Source: Salinibacterium sp.
Lineage (GTDB): Bacteria > Actinomycetota > Actinomycetes > Actinomycetales > Microbacteriaceae
DNA length: 64,000 bases
Direction of reading: 5' to 3'
Assembly (NCBI GenBank): GCA_043721995.1
Contig: JAYSPT010000100.1
Coordinates: 6,592-70,591 of the forward strand
Shown: piece by piece, positions 44,936 to 54,038 of the stretch
Layout of the letters: the number at the start of each line of letters is the position of its first letter
Numbering within the stretch: position 1 is the stretch's first letter
The notes under the pieces: generated by a model
The model's input: the letters and a program-made list of their open reading frames with translations, nothing else
Told to the model about the DNA's origin: nothing
Databases searched by the model: none
Program-made: the position numbers and the translations under genes

Positions 44936-45097
44936 TGTCTGGGGGTGATGCTGAGCCCCCTATGCGGGGTACATTTGCGGTAGGGAGCACCTTGCGCTGG
45001 AACAGTGGGTGCCCGGCCAACGGACGAAGCAGACCGAGCCGAACAGGGCTATCCAGTGGGCATGTTATACGTACGCTCCCAAGAGACGGAGCACGCT

Positions 45098-46225
45098 ATG
45101 ACCAAGTTGGGTTTTCTCAGCACGTACCCGCCCACGCGGTGTGGCCTGGCTACCTTTACTGAAGCCTTGGCCGGTGCCATGGCTTATCCAGGCAGTCGTC
45201 AAGCCTGCGTTGTTCGCGTCGTCGATGAGCCCACTCCGCTCAACGAAAGGCGGTTCGGTCGCCGAGCAGTGATCGCCGAGCTGGTTGCAGGCGACGCGTT
45301 GGGCCGTTCAGCGAGCATCCAAGTCCTCAATGGTTTCGACGTCGTCATCGTGCAGCACGAGTACGGCATTTACGGCGGGCCCGACGGTGACGAGATAATC
45401 GATGTACTCGAGGGCGTGACCGCGCCGACCATCGTCATTTTCCATACCGTTCTGGATGCGCCAACCGTGCATCAAAAGCAGGTCCTGGAGCGAGTCGCCG
45501 AGCTTGCGACATCACTCGTGGTTATGTCGGATCAGGCGCTCGCCAATCTCGCCCGCTACGACGTGCCGATGCGCAAGGTGAGGTTGATTCCGCACGGAGT
45601 ACCCGAGTCGAGTTTTGCAGCACACGACCGCCCCCTGGGCCATCGCGTTCTCACGTGGGGCCTCATCGGGCCTGGGAAGGGGATCGAGTGGGGAATCGGT
45701 GCAATGGCCGAACTGGCTGACATGCTCCCGCGGCCGGAATACGTTGTCGTGGGTAAGACCCACCCGAAGGTGCTCGCCCACGCCGGCGAGGCCTACCGCG
45801 AATCCCTCGAGCAGATAGTGGCTCACCTGCATCTGGAAAATGTGGTTACCTTCGTTGATGAGTACCTCGACGCACACCAACTCGCGCGCTACGTGGACTC
45901 GGCCGACGTTGTGCTGGTGCCGTATGACAGCAAGGATCAGGTCACCTCGGGCGTGCTCGTTGAGGCTGTCGCCGCGGGAAAGCCCGTCATCTCGACTCGC
46001 TTCCCGCATGCCGTGGAGCTTCTGCAAAACGGTGCGGGCGTGATCGTCGACCAGCAGGATGCCACGCAGATTGCGGATGCGATCCGCGGTATCCTCGGGC
46101 ACGCGGGGCGAGCAGCGGAGATGTCGGCGGCCGCGTCTCGAGTGAGTGTGGGTACCGGGTGGCCCGAAGTGGCGCAGCAGTATTGGCAGCTTGCAGAAAG
46201 CATCCTGACAGTGCACGCAGCATGA
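45098..46225 (+). CDS. GT4 glycosyltransferase (mannosyltransferase-like subgroup)
   Basis: STYPPTRCGLATF, QHEYGIYGG, HTVL, IPHG, TWGLIGPGKGIE, QVTSGVLVEA. Confidence 0.9.
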   Translation: MTKLGFLSTYPPTRCGLATFTEALAGAMAYPGSRQACVVRVVDEPTPLNERRFGRRAVIAELVAGDALGRSASIQVLNGFDVVIVQHEYGIYGGPDGDEIIDVLEGVTAPTIVIFHTVLDAPTVHQKQVLERVAELATSLVVMSDQALANLARYDVPMRKVRLIPHGVPESSFAAHDRPLGHRVLTWGLIGPGKGIEWGIGAMAELADMLPRPEYVVVGKTHPKVLAHAGEAYRESLEQIVAHLHLENVVTFVDEYLDAHQLARYVDSADVVLVPYDSKDQVTSGVLVEAVAAGKPVISTRFPHAVELLQNGAGVIVDQQDATQIADAIRGILGHAGRAAEMSAAASRVSVGTGWPEVAQQYWQLAESILTVHAA

Positions 46226-47274
46226 TGCCCGCCACCGCTATGCGGGTCCTCCACGGCATCACGACCGATCCCGTTTACTTGCACCTTTCACACTTGACCG
46301 ACGACCGTGGCGTTTTCGAGCATGCGCTGGGCGATGAGCCGCGCAGGGAGCACGGGTATTGCGTTGACGACGTTGCTCGCGCGCTCATCGTGGCGGTGCG
46401 CGAACCGAACCAGACTCTCGAGTTGGGTGGAATCGCGGGTCTCTGCCTGCGCTTTCTCACGTCCGCCATCGAGCCGGACGGGAAGTCGCACAACCGACTG
46501 AATTCGCACGGTGAGTGGACTGACCGCGCAAGCACCGATGATTGCTGGGGTCGCTCCCTCTGGGCGCTCGGGGTCGCTGCCGTTCAGGCGCCCATGGCAG
46601 ACACCCGAGACGACGCGCTGGCCGCGTTCGTGCGCCTTGCCAGCCAGCGCTCGGTGGATGTTCGGGCAATGGCATTCGCATCGCTCGGCGCGAGTGAGTT
46701 GGTCTCGTCGGGAAACACCGACCCGGTCGTGCGCTCGCTACTCGTTGACGCGCTGACGATCATCCCCACTTCCGAAAGCTCGGGGTGGGGCTGGCCAGAA
46801 GACCGACTCAGGTACGCGAATGGAACCCTCGCGGAGGCGATTATTGCTGGTGGCGAAGCTACCGGAGATGCCGGTCTCACTCGTCGAGGCCTTGTCATAC
46901 TCGAGACGCTCATTCGGCTCGAGACCCGGGATGGGCATCTTTCGGTGACCGGCACGGATGGGCGCGGCCCAAGCGAAACAGGGCCACAATTCGACCAGCA
47001 GCCGATCGAAGTCGCCGCCATTGCGGATGCTGCGGCGCGAGCTTACGAGGCCACCGGCTCTGACCACTGGCTCGACGTGCTGAGGATGTCATGGCACTGG
47101 TTCCTCGGTGACAACGACAGTGGTGCGGTCATGATCGATGAAGTCACGGGTGCGGGGTTCGACGGACTCGAGAGTCGAGGTCGAAACGACAACCGCGGTG
47201 CTGAGTCAACTCTCGCTGCCCTCCGCACGTGGCAGAACGCGTGCCTCTATGGATTGCTCGAGGGGACCGCTTGA
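46222..47274 (+). CDS. Uncharacterised helical (six-hairpin-like) protein associated with GT4 and GH130
   Basis: HLTDDRGVFEHA, GYCVDDVARAL, DCWGRSLWALG, FDQQPIE, WFLGDN, NRGAESTLA; ATGA overlap with the GT4 stop. Confidence 0.75.
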   Translation: MMPATAMRVLHGITTDPVYLHLSHLTDDRGVFEHALGDEPRREHGYCVDDVARALIVAVREPNQTLELGGIAGLCLRFLTSAIEPDGKSHNRLNSHGEWTDRASTDDCWGRSLWALGVAAVQAPMADTRDDALAAFVRLASQRSVDVRAMAFASLGASELVSSGNTDPVVRSLLVDALTIIPTSESSGWGWPEDRLRYANGTLAEAIIAGGEATGDAGLTRRGLVILETLIRLETRDGHLSVTGTDGRGPSETGPQFDQQPIEVAAIADAAARAYEATGSDHWLDVLRMSWHWFLGDNDSGAVMIDEVTGAGFDGLESRGRNDNRGAESTLAALRTWQNACLYGLLEGTA

Positions 47275-48542
47275 CGCTCATTGCGACGGACAGCGGTATG
47301 CAGCTTGAGGCTGATCCGGCTCGCGTCGTTGCGAAGCTATTCCTGCCCGGCGAAAGTATCGCACCGGTGCAGATCCGGGCCGAGGCGATCTATGAACGTG
47401 TGCTGGCCCTCGACGATGCCACCGCGGCAGCGACCGCGAAGTCGATCCTTGACACGTTCTCACCGCGTCACGACGACCTGCCGGGCATCCTCGCCGATCA
47501 TGCGAAGGCCGGTCTCGCGCGCGTCGGTGGCACGATAGATGACCAATCGCCGCACTTCACGGTGCTTGGGGGTACATTCACCGCTGAGTATGCGGTGGAG
47601 GGGGCGGCCCTGTGCAACCCATCGCCGGTTCTTCATCCCGACCAAACCGGTCTAAAGCCGGGAGAGGCGCGGATTGCCCTCGCTGTTCGCGAGATTGGCG
47701 AGGGCCACGTATCGACCCTGGGTTTTGCGTGCGCAACGGTTGGCGCCGGGGGCTGGGCTTTCGAGGAGCGCGCATTGCCCCTTCGAGCGCCGGTCGTGAA
47801 GCGGGCAAACGACAGTTGGTCAAATTACGAGATCGTTTTTGCGGAGGACAGCAGCCTGAGCCAGCGCGTGGCGATGCCCGTGATTGACTCCGAACGCAAC
47901 GGCATCGAGGACGCGCGCTTCGTGCGCTTCACGGGTGCTGACGGGCATACCGACTACCGTGCGACGTACACCGCATACGACGGAACGGGGGTACTGCCAC
48001 GTCTGTTTGTCTCCGAAGACCTGGTGTCCTTCTCTAGTCACCCCCTCACCGGCGCGGCCGCGACGAACAAGGGCGTTGCGTTATTCCCGCGGCCGGTCGG
48101 CGGGGAAATCCTCGCGTTGGTGAGATCGGATGGTGAGTCGAACTTCGTTGCTCGCTCGCCCGACGGGCTCGCGTGGGGTCATGGGGCGATCATCCGAACG
48201 CCCGAGATGCCGTGGGAGATCGTCACTACCGGTAACTGTGGTTCACCGATCGAAACCTCGGAAGGCTGGCTCGTGATGACTCACGGCGTCGGTGCGATGC
48301 GGGTCTATTCGATGGGTGCGATGCTGCTCGACCTCGACGATCCAACGAAAGTGATCGGGCTGCTCAGGGAGCCGTTGCTGCGCTCGGACGGCACGAAACA
48401 GAACGGTTACGTGCCGAACGTGGTCTACTCCTGCGGTTCGATCGTGCATGAAGGCACGGTGTGGATCCCCTACGGTGTCGGCGATAACCGAATCCGTGTC
48501 GCGTCCGTGGGCCTTGACGAGTTGCTTGCCGCGATGCGCTAG
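47271..48542 (+). CDS. GH130-family glycoside phosphorylase/hydrolase
   Basis: NPSPVLHPDQ, EGHVS, GIEDARFVRF, TYTAYDG, NKGVALFPR, GNCGSPIET, THGVG, GYVPNVVYSCG; TTG start overlaps the upstream stop. Confidence 0.88.
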   Translation: MTLIATDSGMQLEADPARVVAKLFLPGESIAPVQIRAEAIYERVLALDDATAAATAKSILDTFSPRHDDLPGILADHAKAGLARVGGTIDDQSPHFTVLGGTFTAEYAVEGAALCNPSPVLHPDQTGLKPGEARIALAVREIGEGHVSTLGFACATVGAGGWAFEERALPLRAPVVKRANDSWSNYEIVFAEDSSLSQRVAMPVIDSERNGIEDARFVRFTGADGHTDYRATYTAYDGTGVLPRLFVSEDLVSFSSHPLTGAAATNKGVALFPRPVGGEILALVRSDGESNFVARSPDGLAWGHGAIIRTPEMPWEIVTTGNCGSPIETSEGWLVMTHGVGAMRVYSMGAMLLDLDDPTKVIGLLREPLLRSDGTKQNGYVPNVVYSCGSIVHEGTVWIPYGVGDNRIRVASVGLDELLAAMR

Positions 48543-48587: not shown

Positions 48588-49415
48588 ATGACGCCACTAC
48601 AGGCCCGCATCATTTACGACCTCAACGTCGTCCCGTCGATCGACCCAGCAGAGCAGGTGCGCCTGCGAGTCGACTTCCTGAAGGCTTACCTGCGCACCGT
48701 TTCCGCAGCGGGCTTCGTGCTGGGCATCAGCGGGGGGCAGGACTCCAGCCTCGCGGGTCGGCTGTGCCAGCTCGCCACTGAAGAGCTTCGTTCAGAGGGT
48801 TTCGCCGCCCAGTTCAAAGCCGTGCGCCTGCCCTACAGGGTGCAAGCGGACGAAGCGGATGCCCAACTCGCGCTCGACTTTATCAAGCCGGACAAATCGA
48901 TCACCTTCAACATTGGTCCCGGCGTGGATGGCGTCGGTGCCGAGTTCGGCGACGCAGCCGGTACTCCGCTCGCGGATTTCACGAAGGGGAATATGAAGGC
49001 GCGCATTCGCATGGTTGCGCAGTACGCGATCGCCGGCCAGGCGTCGCTGCTCGTCGTGGGCACCGACCACGCTGCCGAGGCAGTCACGGGATTCTTCACC
49101 AAGTACGGTGATGGGGGTGCCGACATCCTGCCACTGAGCGGACTGACCAAGCGGCAGGGTCGCACGATGCTCGAGTACCTCGGTGCGCCGGAACGGCTCT
49201 ACCTCAAGGCCCCCACCGCCGACTTGCTGGATGGCACTCCCGGCCAGACCGATGAGGCGAACCTGGGGCTCAGCTACGCCCAGATCGACGACTACCTCGA
49301 GGGGCGGGATGTTGCACCCGAGGTCGCCGAGGGGATCGAGACGCGCTACATCTCGACGATGCACAAACGCACCGTGCCTGTGACGCCATTCGATGACTGG
49401 TGGCGGGGTCGGTAA
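48588..49415 (+). CDS. nadE: Ammonia-dependent (single-domain) NAD+ synthetase
   Basis: [43 protein letters not shown]; 275 aa with no glutaminase domain. Confidence 0.95.
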
Positions 49416-49530
49416 GCCCCATCGCCGACGACGCCCACCGGCTGGGGTGACCGTGGGGTCGATGCCCGCCTGAAAGCGGCACTGCTGTCGTACCGGCAAC
49501 TGATCGCGTCCGGAGCCTAGGCTTAGCTCC

Positions 49531-50325
49531 ATGCCCAGCATCGCTGTCGTCCAATTCGCGCCGAGCGATGACACTGCCGCGAACCTTGCAACCATTGACG
49601 CTCTGGTTAGTCGCGCAGCGGCTCGCGGCGCGACCCTTGTCGTGCTCCCCGAGTACTCCTCCTGGTTCTCCGCAGAGCTGGGTTCGAACTGGGTAGATGC
49701 TGCTCAGGGCATCGACGGTGAGTTTGTGACCGGGCTTCGCGCTCTGGTGCGGCGGCTGCGCATTCACCTGGTCGCGGGCATTCTGGAGACGGCCGAGCCC
49801 ACACGCATCTCGAACACTGTTGTCGCTCTCGACTCCGGCGGCGAGGTGGTGAGCGTGTACCGCAAGATTCATCTGTACGATGCCTTCGGCCATCGCGAAT
49901 CGGACTGGGTTCGTGCGGGAGACACCACGCAGCCGCAGACCTTCGCATGGGAGGGCTTCACTGTCGGCCTGCAAACGTGCTACGACATTCGCTTCCCTGA
50001 AGTCACCAGGCGCTTAGTCGACGCGGGTGCCACCCTCGTGCTGGTGCCGGCCGAGTGGGTGCGCGGCCCACTGAAGGAGCACCACTGGCGCACCCTCGTG
50101 ACCGCCCGTGCGCTGGAGAACACGATCTACATCGCGGCCGCCGACCACGCCCCGCCGGTCGGAGTGGGTAACAGCATGGTGGTTGATCCGATGGGGGTGG
50201 AACTCGTGACGATCGGCGACGAGGTGGGGGCGGCGGTCGCCGAAATCTCGGTGGCACGTCTCGCCGCCGTGCGGGAAGTCAACCCGGCACTAAATCTTCG
50301 TCGATTCGGTGTCGTGCCTCTGTAG
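49531..50325 (+). CDS. Carbon-nitrogen hydrolase (nitrilase superfamily, YbeM/Nit-like amidase)
   Basis: Catalytic triad in LPEY, YRKIHLYD, TCYDIRFPE; RALEN. Confidence 0.92.
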   Translation: MPSIAVVQFAPSDDTAANLATIDALVSRAAARGATLVVLPEYSSWFSAELGSNWVDAAQGIDGEFVTGLRALVRRLRIHLVAGILETAEPTRISNTVVALDSGGEVVSVYRKIHLYDAFGHRESDWVRAGDTTQPQTFAWEGFTVGLQTCYDIRFPEVTRRLVDAGATLVLVPAEWVRGPLKEHHWRTLVTARALENTIYIAAADHAPPVGVGNSMVVDPMGVELVTIGDEVGAAVAEISVARLAAVREVNPALNLRRFGVVPL

Positions 50326-51481
50326 CGCTGCCGGTCTTGCGGTAAAGCACGAGATACTGCTCGGCCACGGCTTCGTCGATCTCCCGCGGTACCGGCACAA
50401 CGACGGCATCCGAAGAAACCGTTCCGAGGGCGATTGCCTCAAGGCAGCGGGATTGAAGCGCGAAGCCCAGGTCCATTGACTCAATCGAGTTGCCGAGTGG
50501 GTTTGCACCACCGAGGTTGACCATGTGGCCTTTCGTGGCGAGGTGTATCCGCCGGCCGTCGTTCAGCGTGAGAGTTTCGAGGCCGGGTGCGGCATTCGTC
50601 ACAGAATCGACCGTGGGGTGTGCCAGGATTCCCGGCACGTCGATCTCGAGCGGGAAGTGCCCCGCGTTCATGAGTACTACGTCGTCTTTGAGCAGCGGTA
50701 CATCCCCGGCCAGCAGAATGTCGCGGGCGCCCGTCACTGTCACGACGATGTCTGCCGCGGATAACGCCGCCTCCCTCGGTGAGACGTCGAACCCGTCCAG
50801 GCTCGCCTCAAGACGCTTGACCGGGTCGACCTCGATGACCGTGACCAGGGCATACGTATTACGGAAATTTGCTGCGACCCCCTGTCCGCACGCGCCATAG
50901 CCGAAGACCACGACGCGCTTGCCCTGGGTCGAGCGATTGGTGATGCGAAGGTACGACTCGAGCACACTTTGGCCCACCGCGTGCCGGTTCTCCGCGAACT
51001 GCTTGATGGGGGAGTCGTTGATCACCAGGATGGGTACGCGCAGTCGATCGCGGAGCGACACGAGCCGGTTACGGCCGGAGGTGGTCTCCTCAGTTCCGCC
51101 GCGAAGCGTATCCCACGGACGATCGAGGTAGCGGGTGAAAAGATCGCCACCGTTATCGAGAATCAGGTCAGGCTTGGCGGCGATGACCTCCAAGAGGTCG
51201 CGATCATGCACGGCTGGGTCGCTGGTTGGTCCGCCGATGACGGTGACGCCATGCTCCCTCAGGTAGTCGACGGTCTCGGCCTGTGTACTGTTCAGGTTGC
51301 CGGTGGAAACCAGGTTCGCCCCGCCCCGCTGAAGGGTCATGAGAAGTGCTGCCGTCTTCGGTTCGAGGTGGATGCCCGTGCCGATGGTTACATCGGCGAA
51401 TGGCCGAGTCTCCTCGAACTCCGCCCCGATCGCCGACAGCAGCCTGCAGCTCGCAGCGACCCAATCAATACGTGATGCCAT
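50279..51481 (-). CDS. Adenosylhomocysteinase-like protein (short form, divergent active site)
   Basis: IHLEPKT, NSTQ, DNGGD, EETTSG, INDSPIK, GYGACG NAD motif, NAGHF, MVNL; SD gaggaagg inside the upstream gene. Confidence 0.85.
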   Translation of the reverse strand: MASRIDWVAASCRLLSAIGAEFEETRPFADVTIGTGIHLEPKTAALLMTLQRGGANLVSTGNLNSTQAETVDYLREHGVTVIGGPTSDPAVHDRDLLEVIAAKPDLILDNGGDLFTRYLDRPWDTLRGGTEETTSGRNRLVSLRDRLRVPILVINDSPIKQFAENRHAVGQSVLESYLRITNRSTQGKRVVVFGYGACGQGVAANFRNTYALVTVIEVDPVKRLEASLDGFDVSPREAALSAADIVVTVTGARDILLAGDVPLLKDDVVLMNAGHFPLEIDVPGILAHPTVDSVTNAAPGLETLTLNDGRRIHLATKGHMVNLGGANPLGNSIESMDLGFALQSRCLEAIALGTVSSDAVVVPVPREIDEAVAEQYLVLYRKTGSATEARHRIDEDLVPG

Positions 51482-52676
51482 GGGATAACCCTTCCTCGAG
51501 TTGTGCCGCCGCCCGCTCCAGCACGTCGACCTTCTTGCAGAACGCGAAGCGCAGGAGGGAGCCGTAGCCTGCGCGCCTTTCCGCCTGCACAAACGCGGTG
51601 ACGGGTACAGCGACGACACCAGCGAGCCGGGGGAGTGATCGGCAGAATTCGGCCGCATCCGTGACGCCGAGGGGCGAAGCATCCGCGATCACGAAGTAGC
51701 CCGCCTGTGGAGAGCTCACGCTGAAGCCTGCTGCGGTGAGGCCCGCACTCACGATGTCTCGCTTGTGCCGCAGCGTCGCCGCGGTGGTTTCGAAGTACTC
51801 GTCGGACAATCCGAGGCCGACCGCGATCGCAGGTTGGAATGGCGCACCGTTCACGAAGGTCAGGAACTGCTTCACCGCAAGGATCGGCTGCAGCAGGGTC
51901 TGCGGCGCGACGATCCAGCCGATCTTCCAGCCGGTCGTGCTGAAGGTCTTGCCACCGCTGGAGATCGTCACGGTTCGCTCGAACGCACCCGGCAGGGTCG
52001 AAATTGGGATGTGCTCGACTCCGAATGTCAGGTGCTCGTAGACCTCGTCGGTCACGATGATCACGTCATGCTTCGTCGCGAGTTCGACGATGAGCCGGAG
52101 TGTGTCGCGGTCGAGCACTGTGCCGGTTGGGTTGTGCGGCGAGTTGATGATGATGAGGCGCGTCTTGTCTGTGATGGCGTGTCGGAGGTCATCATGGTCG
52201 GGTCGAAAGCCGGGCGCTCGAAGTGGCACGGTGACATGGGTCACGCGGTTGAACGCGATCATCGCGCCGTAGACGTCATAGAATGGCTCCAGCGTGACGG
52301 CCTCATCGCCGTCATCGGTGAGCGCCAGGATCGTGGCGGCGAGCGCCTCGGTTGCCCCGGCCGTCACCAGCACCTGCGTGTCTGGATCGACGGTGAGGCC
52401 GTAGAACCGCCGCTGATGCGCGGCGATCGCGTTCCTGAGCACTGGCATCCCGATTCCGGGCGGGTACTGGTTCAGACCGTCTGAGATTGCTTGGCGCGCG
52501 GCGTCCAGAACCTCGGGCGGACCATCCTGATCAGGAAAACCCTGCCCGAGATTCAGTGAATTCGTGGCGAGGGCGAGTGCGGACATCTCCGCGAAGATGG
52601 TCGGCCGAAGTTTCCCGTCCCCGCTCAGCAGCATGGCGCCGTCGGCGGCGCGCTGCCAGGATCCGCGGACAGTCAT
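51465..52676 (-). CDS. PLP-dependent class I/II aminotransferase (YbdL/glutamine-transaminase-K-like)
   Basis: TIFAEMS, NLGQGFPD, NQYPPG, NSPHNPTG, DEVYEHL, SGGKTFSTTGWKIGW. Confidence 0.92.
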   Translation of the reverse strand: MTVRGSWQRAADGAMLLSGDGKLRPTIFAEMSALALATNSLNLGQGFPDQDGPPEVLDAARQAISDGLNQYPPGIGMPVLRNAIAAHQRRFYGLTVDPDTQVLVTAGATEALAATILALTDDGDEAVTLEPFYDVYGAMIAFNRVTHVTVPLRAPGFRPDHDDLRHAITDKTRLIIINSPHNPTGTVLDRDTLRLIVELATKHDVIIVTDEVYEHLTFGVEHIPISTLPGAFERTVTISSGGKTFSTTGWKIGWIVAPQTLLQPILAVKQFLTFVNGAPFQPAIAVGLGLSDEYFETTAATLRHKRDIVSAGLTAAGFSVSSPQAGYFVIADASPLGVTDAAEFCRSLPRLAGVVAVPVTAFVQAERRAGYGSLLRFAFCKKVDVLERAAAQLEEGLSHGITY

Positions 52677-52746
52677 TGTTCTGCGAGTGTATTGCGCCTG
52701 TGGATGAATTGCTCGCGGGTGACGGCGGCGGCGCTACGGTCCCGCT

Positions 52747-53283
52747 ATGAGGATGCTCCCCATCGCACTGGCTCTCGCGCTGTTACCGAGTGGATGCTCG
52801 GCGCATGGCACGACAGCTATCCCCGCAGCCGAGCCGACGTCCGCCCCGGTATTCGCGTCAGATGAAGACGCGCTGGCTGCGGCCAAGATGGCGTACGGCA
52901 ACTATCTGGCAATTTCAGACTTGATCTCGCAACAAGGCGGGGTACACCCCGACCGCCTAAAGCAAGCTGTTACTCCCGAGTTGTTGGCACACCAGATTGA
53001 GTTCTTTGGGACTTTTGCCAAGTCGGGCCAACATCAGGTCGGGCTCTCGACCATCACAAACGTAAAACTTCAACGACTTGAAGACGATGGTTACGGACAC
53101 GTGACGGTCACGATCTATGCCTGCACCGACTTCTCGGGCACACGCTTTCTCGACTCGGCCGGACAAGATGTAACTCCCACAGCGTCACGGGCCGCCACTC
53201 TCGAGCTCGAGTTCTCTCTGACTCCCTTGAGTCCACTCATCATGTCTGGTAGCGGCCTGTGGTCCGGCCAATCAATCTGCTAG
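52747..53283 (+). CDS. Hypothetical lipoprotein
   Basis: Signal peptide with SGC lipobox-like site, PVFASDEDALAAA motif, internal YAC Cys and terminal Cys. Confidence 0.7.
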   Translation: MRMLPIALALALLPSGCSAHGTTAIPAAEPTSAPVFASDEDALAAAKMAYGNYLAISDLISQQGGVHPDRLKQAVTPELLAHQIEFFGTFAKSGQHQVGLSTITNVKLQRLEDDGYGHVTVTIYACTDFSGTRFLDSAGQDVTPTASRAATLELEFSLTPLSPLIMSGSGLWSGQSIC

Positions 53284-54038
53284 TCGCTGCGGCTGTGTGC
53301 GTCGCGCTCACAGGGCTTCCGGCGCAAAGTGTGTTCGCGGCAGGCGACTGCCAAGCACCCGACATCAACTGGGGCACGTGTGTCGACGGCAACATCAACG
53401 GCGGCGGCGACGGCGTCGACCTCAGTGGCGGCATGAACGGTCCCGGGACGGGTTCCAGCGGTGGCGACGGCGCGACCGACGCTGGCTCAAGCGGCGGGAA
53501 CTCAAGCGGCGGGGACTTGCCTCTGCGGCCCTTTGATTTCATCATTGTGTCGCCAGAGATAAGTCTCTCCGATGTTGCGAGTTTTAGAGCCGTGCCGGGT
53601 GTGGGCCACATGGAGCCCAACGGTTGGATGGTGGTTGGACTCGACACAAACTTCTACGCAACGGGTGGTCAGCAGGTCGTGGAGGGGCAACTCCTCAATC
53701 TTGCCGCCAGGGTGCGCTTCACGCCGATCGCCTGGCACTGGGACTACGGTGACGGCGCAACCGCAAACGCCTCCATCCCGGGTGGCACATGGATGCAGTC
53801 CGGGGTGGCCGAGTTCGGTGCAACATCCACAAGCCATATTTATCGGGCCCCTGGTACCTACACGATCACCCTCACCATCGACTATCGCGCCGAGTACCAG
53901 TTCTCGCGCGCCGGGTGGAAATCGATACCGGGGTCGATCTCGCTCTTTGCCAATCGCCTGACCGCTGCGGCTGGCAGCGCGAAGACGCTGCTGATGAATC
54001 ACGATTGCGCAGCCAAACCTTCCGGGCCCGGTTGTTGA
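53259..54038 (+). CDS. Secreted PKD-like beta-sandwich protein with Gly/Ser linker
   Basis: Signal peptide, Cys pair, G/S-rich linker, WDYGDG and SHIYRAPGTYTITLT PKD motifs, C-terminal Cys pair. Confidence 0.75.
   Translation: MVRPINLLVAAAVCVALTGLPAQSVFAAGDCQAPDINWGTCVDGNINGGGDGVDLSGGMNGPGTGSSGGDGATDAGSSGGNSSGGDLPLRPFDFIIVSPEISLSDVASFRAVPGVGHMEPNGWMVVGLDTNFYATGGQQVVEGQLLNLAARVRFTPIAWHWDYGDGATANASIPGGTWMQSGVAEFGATSTSHIYRAPGTYTITLTIDYRAEYQFSRAGWKSIPGSISLFANRLTAAAGSAKTLLMNHDCAAKPSGPGC

Follow-up and report, generated by a model that had tools for sequence, protein, structure and literature searches.

We analyzed a window of 64,000 nucleotides from Salinibacterium sp. (contig JAYSPT010000100.1, assembly GCA_043721995.1; all positions below refer to this window), in which an AhcY-like gene, related to the genes for S-adenosylhomocysteine (SAH) hydrolase (SAHH), lies at 50279-51481 on the minus strand and encodes 400 residues. 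Our analysis favors, with moderate confidence, a reading by which the product is a functional enzyme that binds nicotinamide adenine dinucleotide (NAD+) and would act on a 6-oxopurine (inosine-type) nucleoside or a derivative thereof, rather than on SAH or S-inosylhomocysteine (SIH), in the course of nucleoside scavenging or catabolism. As such, it would be neither the SAH hydrolase of the methyl cycle nor an SIH hydrolase (SIHH) of the archaeal or Thermotoga type. A first-pass annotation of this stretch had already held that the protein is probably not a SAH hydrolase, and this view gains support from the loss of both contacts to the homocysteine amino group, from a position outside the SAHH/SIHH clade and from the placement of relatives in nucleoside catabolism loci. 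When referring to the results below, it should be considered that we infer the substrate class and every chemical step, that the residue mapping is homology-based and that what we say on function derives from sequence, this mapping and gene context.

The reading frame begins with an ATG at 51481 and ends with a stop codon at 50279-50281, and its assignment is based on the translation, on Pfam, NCBIfam and PDB matches, and on AlphaFold and Foldseek. The protein matches the Pfam families AdoHcyase_NAD (PF00670; 2.6e-33) and AdoHcyase (PF05221). Its best solved relatives are the SAHHs of T. maritima (3x2e/5tov, E = 5e-76) and P. furiosus (7r37), together with 7r3a, an M. maripaludis enzyme deposited as an SIH hydrolase. 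An AlphaFold model built from 41 family sequences reached a mean predicted local distance difference test score (pLDDT) of 89 and a predicted template modeling (TM) score of 0.83, and Foldseek placed it on the closed T. maritima enzyme 3x2f with a TM score of 0.85.

The NAD-binding fold, His38, EETT, Lys160 and the GHF motif, which the first-pass annotation listed as retained, are confirmed in the translation and in the alignment. The NAD-site signature (GxGxxG, an acidic residue, TTG and NxGH) is present with invariant motifs. In the glycine motif G-Y-G-A-C-G-Q-G at codons 194-201 (50879-50902; like all features within the gene, on the minus strand), the four Gly and the Tyr are unchanged in 121 of 121 aligned homologues, and the E217-x-D motif is kept as well. 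The nucleobase motif H38-L-E40-P-K42 (51356-51370) is of the HxExK, hypoxanthine-preferring type, its H, E and K being invariant in all 121 sequences, and the hydrophobic base pocket formed by L323, M336 and F340 is retained. The catalytic Lys heads the segment K160-Q-F-A-E164 (50990-51004), in which K160 and E164 are invariant (121/121), with N165 following; the motif E131-E132-T-T-S-G is present; and the His275-Phe276 'molecular gate' (50654-50659), found in the context N-A-G-H275-F-P, keeps its His in 121 and its Phe in 115 of the 121 homologues. Altogether, H38, E132, K160, N165 and H275-F276, the counterparts of His55, Glu156, Lys186, Asn191 and His301-Phe, are invariant or nearly so.

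The substitutions reported at the same time (D-N110-GGD, KQFA-E164-N, HLEPK and GNS) are likewise all present. In HMMER alignments to T. maritima SAHH, the second Asp of DDGGD corresponds to N110 of D109-N110-G-G-D113, the Asp of KYLFDN to E164 and the H-P of GHP to N331-S332. Asn110 (51152-51154) thus replaces a catalytic Asp (human Asp131, P. furiosus Asp128), and does so in 120 of 121 homologues and in 40 of 40 sequences of the clade described below, while E164 takes the place of human Asp190. At codons 328-332 (50486-50500), the alignments give P-L-G-N-S, where a two-residue insertion precedes G-N-S and Asn-Ser stands for the hinge His-Pro (human His353). Not listed earlier are, besides this insertion, a one-residue deletion at codons 61-62, G-N (51296-51301), which removes the equivalent of P. 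furiosus Ser79 and appears as a gap in 39 of 40 clade members, as well as a T to S change within EETTSG and a Pro at position 277, directly after the His-Phe gate.

The meaning of these changes can be considered in light of known enzymes. In mouse SAHH, the 2'-OH is held by Glu156 and Asp190, the latter also being the partner of the Lys, the 3'-OH by Thr157 and Lys186, and the 5'-OH by His55, Asp131 and His301; Asp131, located under the ribose ring, serves as proton donor and acceptor at C4', and His55 activates water (PMC4647836). The earlier claim that the equivalent acids matter in AHCY is, therefore, borne out by Asp131 and Asp190. The GHP histidine, on the other hand, does not stack on adenine as had been proposed; rather, it is the main chain of His353 that contacts adenine N6 and N7 (PMC4647836). 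The association of HxExK with a preference for SIH or inosine, already stated in the first-pass annotation, is indeed published, with Glu reading N1 and Lys reading O6, and the same work describes the His-Phe molecular gate (PMC10978960). In the P. furiosus-SIH complex, the homocysteine S contacts His55, the amino group contacts Asp128 and Ser79, and the carboxylate contacts Asn80 and the main chain of Phe299, in the gate (PMC10978960, Table S5).

Judged by this mapping, the AhcY-like protein has kept the residues for 3'-oxidation, a base pocket of the hypoxanthine type, both His and the His-Phe gate with its Glu279; also kept are the equivalents of Asn80 and His55, both homocysteine contacts. 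What it has lost is the C4' acid/base and the two residues that hold the homocysteine amino group, the position of Asp128 being occupied by Asn110 and that of Ser79 being deleted. In addition, the predicted 2'-OH ligand is lengthened (Asp190 to Glu) and the hinge loop at N7 is rebuilt.

These features are not peculiar to one strain. A search of 5.8 billion proteins yielded more than 120 homologues of 66-99% identity from Microbacteriaceae, Geodermatophilaceae, Acidimicrobiales, Gaiellaceae and others. In the 121-sequence alignment, N165, N331 and S332 are invariant, as are H38, E40, K42, E164 and H275, while P41, S135, Q161, H167 and P277 are fixed or nearly so. A scan of one genome per GTDB species gave 389 encoding stretches. 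The best 80 of these have 61-77% identity and belong to Actinomycetota, Chloroflexota and Dormibacterota, with the addition of two Rhizobium isolates and one enterobacterial isolate. Three runs, drawn from sediment, glacier and ice metagenomes in as many studies, contain contigs that reproduce the sequence of the window without any difference, although one of these runs may be the sample behind the window's own assembly. A fourth run, from a glacier, contains a strain variant with 15 differences in the AhcY-like gene, 12 synonymous and three non-synonymous, and the three amino acid replacements fall at variable positions. Given this 12:3 bias and the family-wide conservation, the gene is under purifying selection.

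To place the protein among its relatives, a maximum-likelihood tree of 107 sequences was calculated in a single FastTree run. It was anchored by the canonical AhcY of this genome and by the enzymes of T. maritima, P. furiosus and M. maripaludis. Every sequence that combines Asn131 with Glu190 (human numbering) falls into one clade, with an SH-like support of 0.996. This N/E clade comprises 40 Asn/Glu tips and two derived tips, and every member carries HxExK. The three anchors with known structures, all of them characterized SAH/SIH hydrolases, lie outside it and present Asp/Asp/His. Within the clade, the window's protein belongs to class A, a fully supported subclade on a long stem with 61-99% identity. 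Classes B (KAIGEN/PKGNS), C (HVESK...GHP) and F share with it the Asn/Glu signature, the Ser79 deletion, membership of the one clade and a location in nucleoside loci, whereas class A has its own KQFAEN and P-L-G-N-S motifs and its own partners, namely LacI, an APC permease, a metallophosphoesterase and SnoaL. Class B, the sister class, is 42-46% identical and presents the same Asn/Glu/Asn signature along with the two-residue insertion. In a protein library clustered at 50% identity, the family is reduced to one full-length representative (65% identity), and identity falls to 35-44% in the next full-length relatives, many of which show the pattern HxEPK / DNG[AG][DE] / KxxxEN / GN[PS]IE. Among the 81 genera of Microbacteriaceae sampled, the canonical enzyme was found in 58, class B in 16 and class A in only two. 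Our literature searches on bacterial SAHH paralogues retrieved no paper on the N/E clade, and a 2026 review of SAHHs makes no mention of non-canonical members. The N/E clade is thus a widespread subfamily for which we found no characterization, with an active site that is rewired consistently and interpretably.

As for gene context, genes were called heuristically in 78 class A loci and the neighbors were clustered. The commonest partner is a LacI-family regulator, present in 28-29 of the 78 loci; it lies within three genes in 23, directly adjoins the AhcY-like gene in 19 and stands immediately downstream in 17. About ten class A loci present a co-oriented module of a metallophosphoesterase, a 548-residue APC-type permease and the AhcY-like gene, with LacI beside it and often with an NTP_transf_5 protein and/or a SnoaL-like protein, single or in tandem (loci L011, L013, L015, L030, L034, L037, L067, L073, L074 and L080). 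The module metallophosphoesterase, of 312 residues, is recognized with a weak score and the APC-superfamily permease has no NCBIfam match. As this module recurs across Actinomycetota (Microbacteriaceae, Geodermatophilaceae, Mycobacteriales and Streptosporangiaceae) and Chloroflexota, its distribution suggests transfer as a unit. In Modestobacter, the class A gene is the last in an operon that also comprises LacI, cytidine deaminase and a sugar-type ABC transporter, while the enterobacterial isolate shows the order LacI, AhcY-like gene, Gfo/Idh/MocA oxidoreductase. The effector of LacI could not be read from homology, the best match being a weak, RbsR-like one far below the cut-off.

The other subclades point in the same direction. 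In 13-14 Microbacteriaceae genomes, class B lies within the nucleoside cluster that is standard for actinobacteria, between uriH and an IclR-add pair, in the order nucleoside ABC transporter, cdd, deoA, divergent uriH, class B gene, IclR, add, phosphomutase and punA. Neighbors above their NCBIfam cut-offs are adenosine deaminase, thymidine phosphorylase, UriH, cytidine deaminase and purine nucleoside phosphorylase (PNP). The further Asn/Glu subclades C and F are found in loci with BMP-type ABC transporters, PfkB kinase, PNP and phosphomutase: one of the two adjoins PNP, phosphomutase, a deaminase and a nucleoside ABC transporter, and the other occurs with LacI, a PfkB sugar kinase, Gfo/Idh/MocA and short-chain dehydrogenase/reductase (SDR) oxidoreductases and a BMP-type ABC transporter. 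Four N/E subclades, therefore, sit in nucleoside uptake or catabolism loci, and genes of the methionine or S-adenosylmethionine cycle were seen in none of the N/E-clade contexts examined. Among the annotated recurring neighbors of 78 class A and 16 class B loci, there was likewise no 5'-methylthioadenosine (MTA)/SAH deaminase of the DadD/Tm0936 type (the whole genome was not searched for DadD); the deaminases at these loci are Add and Cdd equivalogs.

Whether a canonical ahcY lies elsewhere in the genome, a question already raised in the first-pass annotation, is answered by a second gene on contig C168. Its product is a canonical long AhcY with 570.3 bits on TIGR00936 (cut-off 497.6) and with HMTVQT, DDGGD, EETTTG, KSKFDN, GHFD, GHP and the long bacterial insert. 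The gene (C168:1212-2510) is truncated by the contig end and its first ~33 residues are found at C120:2927-3025, such that the split reflects assembly fragmentation and not a broken gene. With this enzyme in the genome, the AhcY-like protein is a paralogue, separate from the methyl-cycle SAH hydrolase. On TIGR00936, the AhcY-like protein scores only 269.7 bits, below the equivalog cut-off. On NCBIfam NF004005 (PRK05476.2-3, 'adenosylhomocysteinase'), it scores 310.1 bits, above the cut-off of 275, and the class B protein scores 360.2 bits. It is because this cut-off is passed that relatives bear the public name 'adenosylhomocysteinase'; however, the match is a naming rule and no functional test, and the AhcY-like protein and its relatives are likely misannotated.

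Comparison with the closest known systems, namely the SAHH/SIHH enzymes of T. maritima (3X2E/3X2F, 5TOV/5TOW), P. furiosus (7R37/7R38) and M. maripaludis (7R3A), with which the M. jannaschii SIH hydrolase (EC 3.13.1.9) is grouped, leads to a similar view. The AhcY-like protein shares with these their short 'archaeal-type' architecture lacking the 40-residue insert, 35-40% identity, a TM score of 0.85, HxExK, the NAD site, Lys186, Glu156, Asn191, His55 and the His301-Phe gate. It differs from them by Asp131 to Asn, Asp190 to Glu, deletion of the Ser79 equivalent and His353-Pro to Asn-Ser with the two-residue insertion before it, as well as by its separate, supported clade and its nucleoside catabolism context with no MTA/SAH deaminase route. 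With canonical SAH hydrolase (EC 3.13.2.1), it has in common the two-domain Rossmann fold and the residues of NAD-dependent 3'-oxidation, yet it has HxExK in place of HxTxQ/E, neither the 40-residue insert nor a long C-terminal tail and, clade-wide, Asn110 and Glu164 in place of Asp131 and Asp190. Other chemistry in this fold has a precedent in AgmF, the one bacterial SAHH-fold enzyme described with another reaction. This angustmycin C dehydratase is NAD+-dependent and belongs to the SAHH family, does not accept SAH, performs a different 5'-side chemistry and recycles its own NAD+ (PMC8599513). AgmF, nonetheless, keeps its essential Asp129 and Asp188 where the AhcY-like protein has Asn and Glu, and sits in an antibiotic gene cluster, whereas no biosynthetic cluster surrounds the AhcY-like gene. 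An AgmF-like dehydratase was rejected as AgmF retains both Asp residues. By these criteria of sequence, phylogeny and context, the protein thus falls outside EC 3.13.2.1, the characterized SIH hydrolases and AgmF alike.

What, then, might the protein do? As HxExK enzymes prefer SIH and inosine and as the hydrophobic pocket is retained, the base recognized is probably of the hypoxanthine type, with Glu40 and Lys42 reading its N1-H and O6, and since both residues that hold the amino group (the Asp128 and Ser79 equivalents) are gone, homocysteine would not be the ligand. In the mechanism that we propose, bound NAD+ would transiently oxidize the 3'-OH, a step for which Lys160, Glu132, Thr133 and Asn165 are retained; carbanion chemistry would follow, and the ketone would then be reduced again. 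His38 and the His275-Phe276 gate would still handle the 5' position, which would carry a group other than homocysteine. We favor continued 5'-directed chemistry, as C5' is the site of action in all known members of the fold and as the clade as a whole retains the His pair and the His-Phe-x-x-Glu gate. Our preferred sub-mechanism, held tentatively and as something less than probable, is 4',5'-elimination/addition on a 5'-substituted inosine-type nucleoside with a substituent that is not homocysteine. Here, Glu164, or possibly His38, would replace Asp131 in C4' proton transfer, while Asn110 would be freed to bind a neutral or anionic 5' group.

This proposal has some weaknesses that need to be considered. 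In SAHH structures, Asp131 is the sole residue under C4' (PMC4647836), such that another, unproven, base would have to stand in for it in a 4',5'-elimination. Model confidence is low (pLDDT 66-76) in the hinge loop around N331. Gene context is circumstantial evidence, and 49 of the 78 class A loci, including that of the window, show no recurring partner within three genes; indeed, the permease, phosphoesterase, NTP_transf_5 and SnoaL partners are wholly missing from this genome. Moreover, MTAP, PNP, UriH and Add are all encoded in the genome, leaving no obvious metabolic gap that would point to a substrate.

A rather unlikely alternative to the favored 5'-directed chemistry is that the N/E clade relocated the proton-transfer site of the SAHH scaffold, with enolization redirected from C4' to C2'. 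The reaction would be new for the fold, for instance N-glycosidic cleavage by elimination and hydration or C2' epimerization, acting on an inosine-type, i.e., 6-oxopurine, ribo-, 2'-deoxy- or arabino-nucleoside. NAD+-dependent glycosidases of family GH4 cleave by elimination and hydration, and trimeric PNPs have a Glu/Asn pair, of which Asn331 at the N7-contacting hinge position, together with Glu40 on N1-H, is reminiscent. Removal of the C4' acid/base Asp and lengthening of Asp190 to Glu co-vary across the whole clade, clade members are found among enzymes that cleave or prepare N-glycosidic bonds, and a class C locus (four genes on each side) contains a sugar-type PfkB kinase and no nucleoside hydrolase or phosphorylase. 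However, such chemistry has no precedent in the SAHH fold, and the invariance of His38, His275, the gate Phe and Glu279 would be hard to explain had C5' chemistry been abandoned. From ribose geometry, furthermore, the C2'-H of a ribonucleoside should point to the face opposite Glu164, and the activity would be redundant with the PNP and UriH of the same loci.

It is improbable, in our estimate, that the protein is an ordinary second isozyme, i.e., an SIH (or SAH) hydrolase that tolerates its substitutions. The carriage of HxExK, the retention of the Lys, both His, Glu156, Asn191 and the gate, and the NF004005 score above the cut-off would all fit such an enzyme, which could, moreover, be the missing SIH-cleaving enzyme of actinobacteria, SIH being a known metabolite of Streptomyces, whose canonical SAHHs fail to cleave it (PMC10978960). 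Still, all characterized SIHHs keep Asp/Asp/His, whereas here the C4' proton donor and both contacts to the homocysteine amino group are lost; the deaminases next to class A and class B genes are the standard Add and Cdd, and none of the MTA/SAH type was seen there; and a bona fide HxExK enzyme with Asp/Asp/His exists in Microbacteriaceae (L093).

A non-catalytic role is very improbable. The protein could serve as a nucleoside- or NAD-binding sensor or co-regulator acting with LacI or IclR, given that regulators often immediately adjoin its gene, or as a decoy sequestering nucleoside antibiotics that target SAHH, and the loss of the key catalytic Asp would be in line with either. Yet the oxidation machinery and the NAD site (Lys160, Glu132, Thr133 and Asn165) are strictly conserved, many loci, including that of the window, have no regulator nearby and the AHCYL proteins known to be inactive belong to another branch, a eukaryotic one. 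Lastly, strain-specific decay of an ahcY copy, which the departures from several canonical residues and the loss in this genome of neighbors seen in relatives might have suggested and which the first-pass annotation had also raised, can be dismissed as a negligible possibility, as the substitutions do not vary among 121 homologues or within the 40-member clade, the strain variant shows the 12:3 synonymous bias, the frame is intact and preceded by a good Shine-Dalgarno sequence, and at least 80 species-level genomes have a homologue of at least 61% identity.

The outcome matters for annotation as well as for enzymology. Hundreds of genomes carry N/E-clade proteins that are publicly named 'adenosylhomocysteinase' through NF004005, and if these do not hydrolyze SAH, methyl-cycle reconstructions are wrong for many soil and cryosphere bacteria. 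The clade is also a natural experiment on the SAHH scaffold, whose reaction would show how far the redox-assisted mechanism can be redirected. Located as it is in loci for the uptake and catabolism of nucleosides, the clade points to a step in purine nucleoside scavenging that has gone unrecognized and bears on how actinobacteria dispose of inosine-type by-products, such as SIH. If the relocated proton-transfer reading were true, this would be an undescribed step of nucleoside catabolism in Actinomycetota, Chloroflexota and some Rhizobia.

The remaining nucleoside metabolism of this genome includes a complete salvage cluster at C30:24369-35739, with an ABC transporter, cdd, deoA, uriH, add, phosphomutase and punA. 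No class B gene is found in it, and only ~95 bp separate uriH and add, where relatives carry class B and IclR. An MTAP-like gene is also present (255.8 bits) and no MTA/SAH nucleosidase (MTAN) was found in the genome. A role in MTA salvage or in the handling of 5'-methylthioinosine was accordingly rejected, as the MTAP-like gene leaves no gap to be filled.

Outside the N/E clade, a further class of relatives, class D (VLEPK, DDGSH, KTxFDN, VAGGVD and GNPIE), occurs in about 14 of the 81 Microbacteriaceae genera (loci L109-L125). It keeps both Asp residues and has neither catalytic His. In one genome (L092/L093, G050:C41:338103-340555), class D stands in tandem with a Thermotoga-type HLEAK enzyme, and several genomes have class D and no canonical AhcY.

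The immediate surroundings of the AhcY-like gene are less informative. Upstream, on the same strand, a class I/II aminotransferase gene (51465-52676, minus strand) encodes, by Pfam and NCBIfam matches, a PRK07777-type amino-acid aminotransferase with a relationship to methionine aminotransferases. The end of this gene and the beginning of the AhcY-like gene share 17 nt, and the two genes are, therefore, probably co-transcribed in this genome. The Shine-Dalgarno-like GAGGAAGGG (51489-51497, minus strand), found by direct reading, lies 7 nt 5' of the AhcY-like ATG. The adjacency of the two genes was found only in five Microbacteriaceae and two Thermoleophilia loci, and in one Rhodoglobus genome, three genes intervene. 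A functional link to the overlapping aminotransferase was rejected as the pairing is confined to few lineages, and the arrangement is treated as local synteny. A scan of 49300-53300 revealed no sigma-70-like promoter and no intrinsic terminator.

At its other end, the AhcY-like protein has a C-terminal extension of ~18 residues (50282-50335, minus strand), which is absent from most homologues, these being ~382 residues long and spanning 95% of the query. The extension is modeled as disordered, with pLDDT below 50 for residues 385-400. It is due to this extension that the gene overlaps the convergent CN-hydrolase gene (plus strand, 49531-50325) by 47 nt at the 3' ends (50279-50325). In the closest relatives, the gene order is aminotransferase, AhcY-like gene, LacI and sensor kinase, and the LacI side is gone here. 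Since close relatives carry LacI and the sensor kinase at the position of the CN-hydrolase, a deletion probably fused the neighborhood of the AhcY-like gene with the CN-hydrolase/NadE side. A link to the convergent NadE and CN-hydrolase was rejected, as these are neighbors here only because the LacI and sensor-kinase genes are missing.

Some additional observations concern the locus at large. Metagenomes of glacier, ice, soil and sediment from at least seven studies contain this locus in nearly identical form, and the source organism is, therefore, a widespread, cryosphere-associated member of Microbacteriaceae. The runs listed for it all carry a guessed DNA label and none is an RNA run, although no search aimed at RNA was made. 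On one strand at 48588-50325, an NH3-type NAD synthase, NadE (383 bits, NF001979), is followed by the separate CN-hydrolase, which is closest to deaminated-glutathione amidase, with 240 bits, below the cut-off of 355. Upstream of these, at 45005-48542, lies an overlapping trio that encodes a GT4 glycosyltransferase, an unassigned protein of 371 residues and a GH130 phosphorylase.

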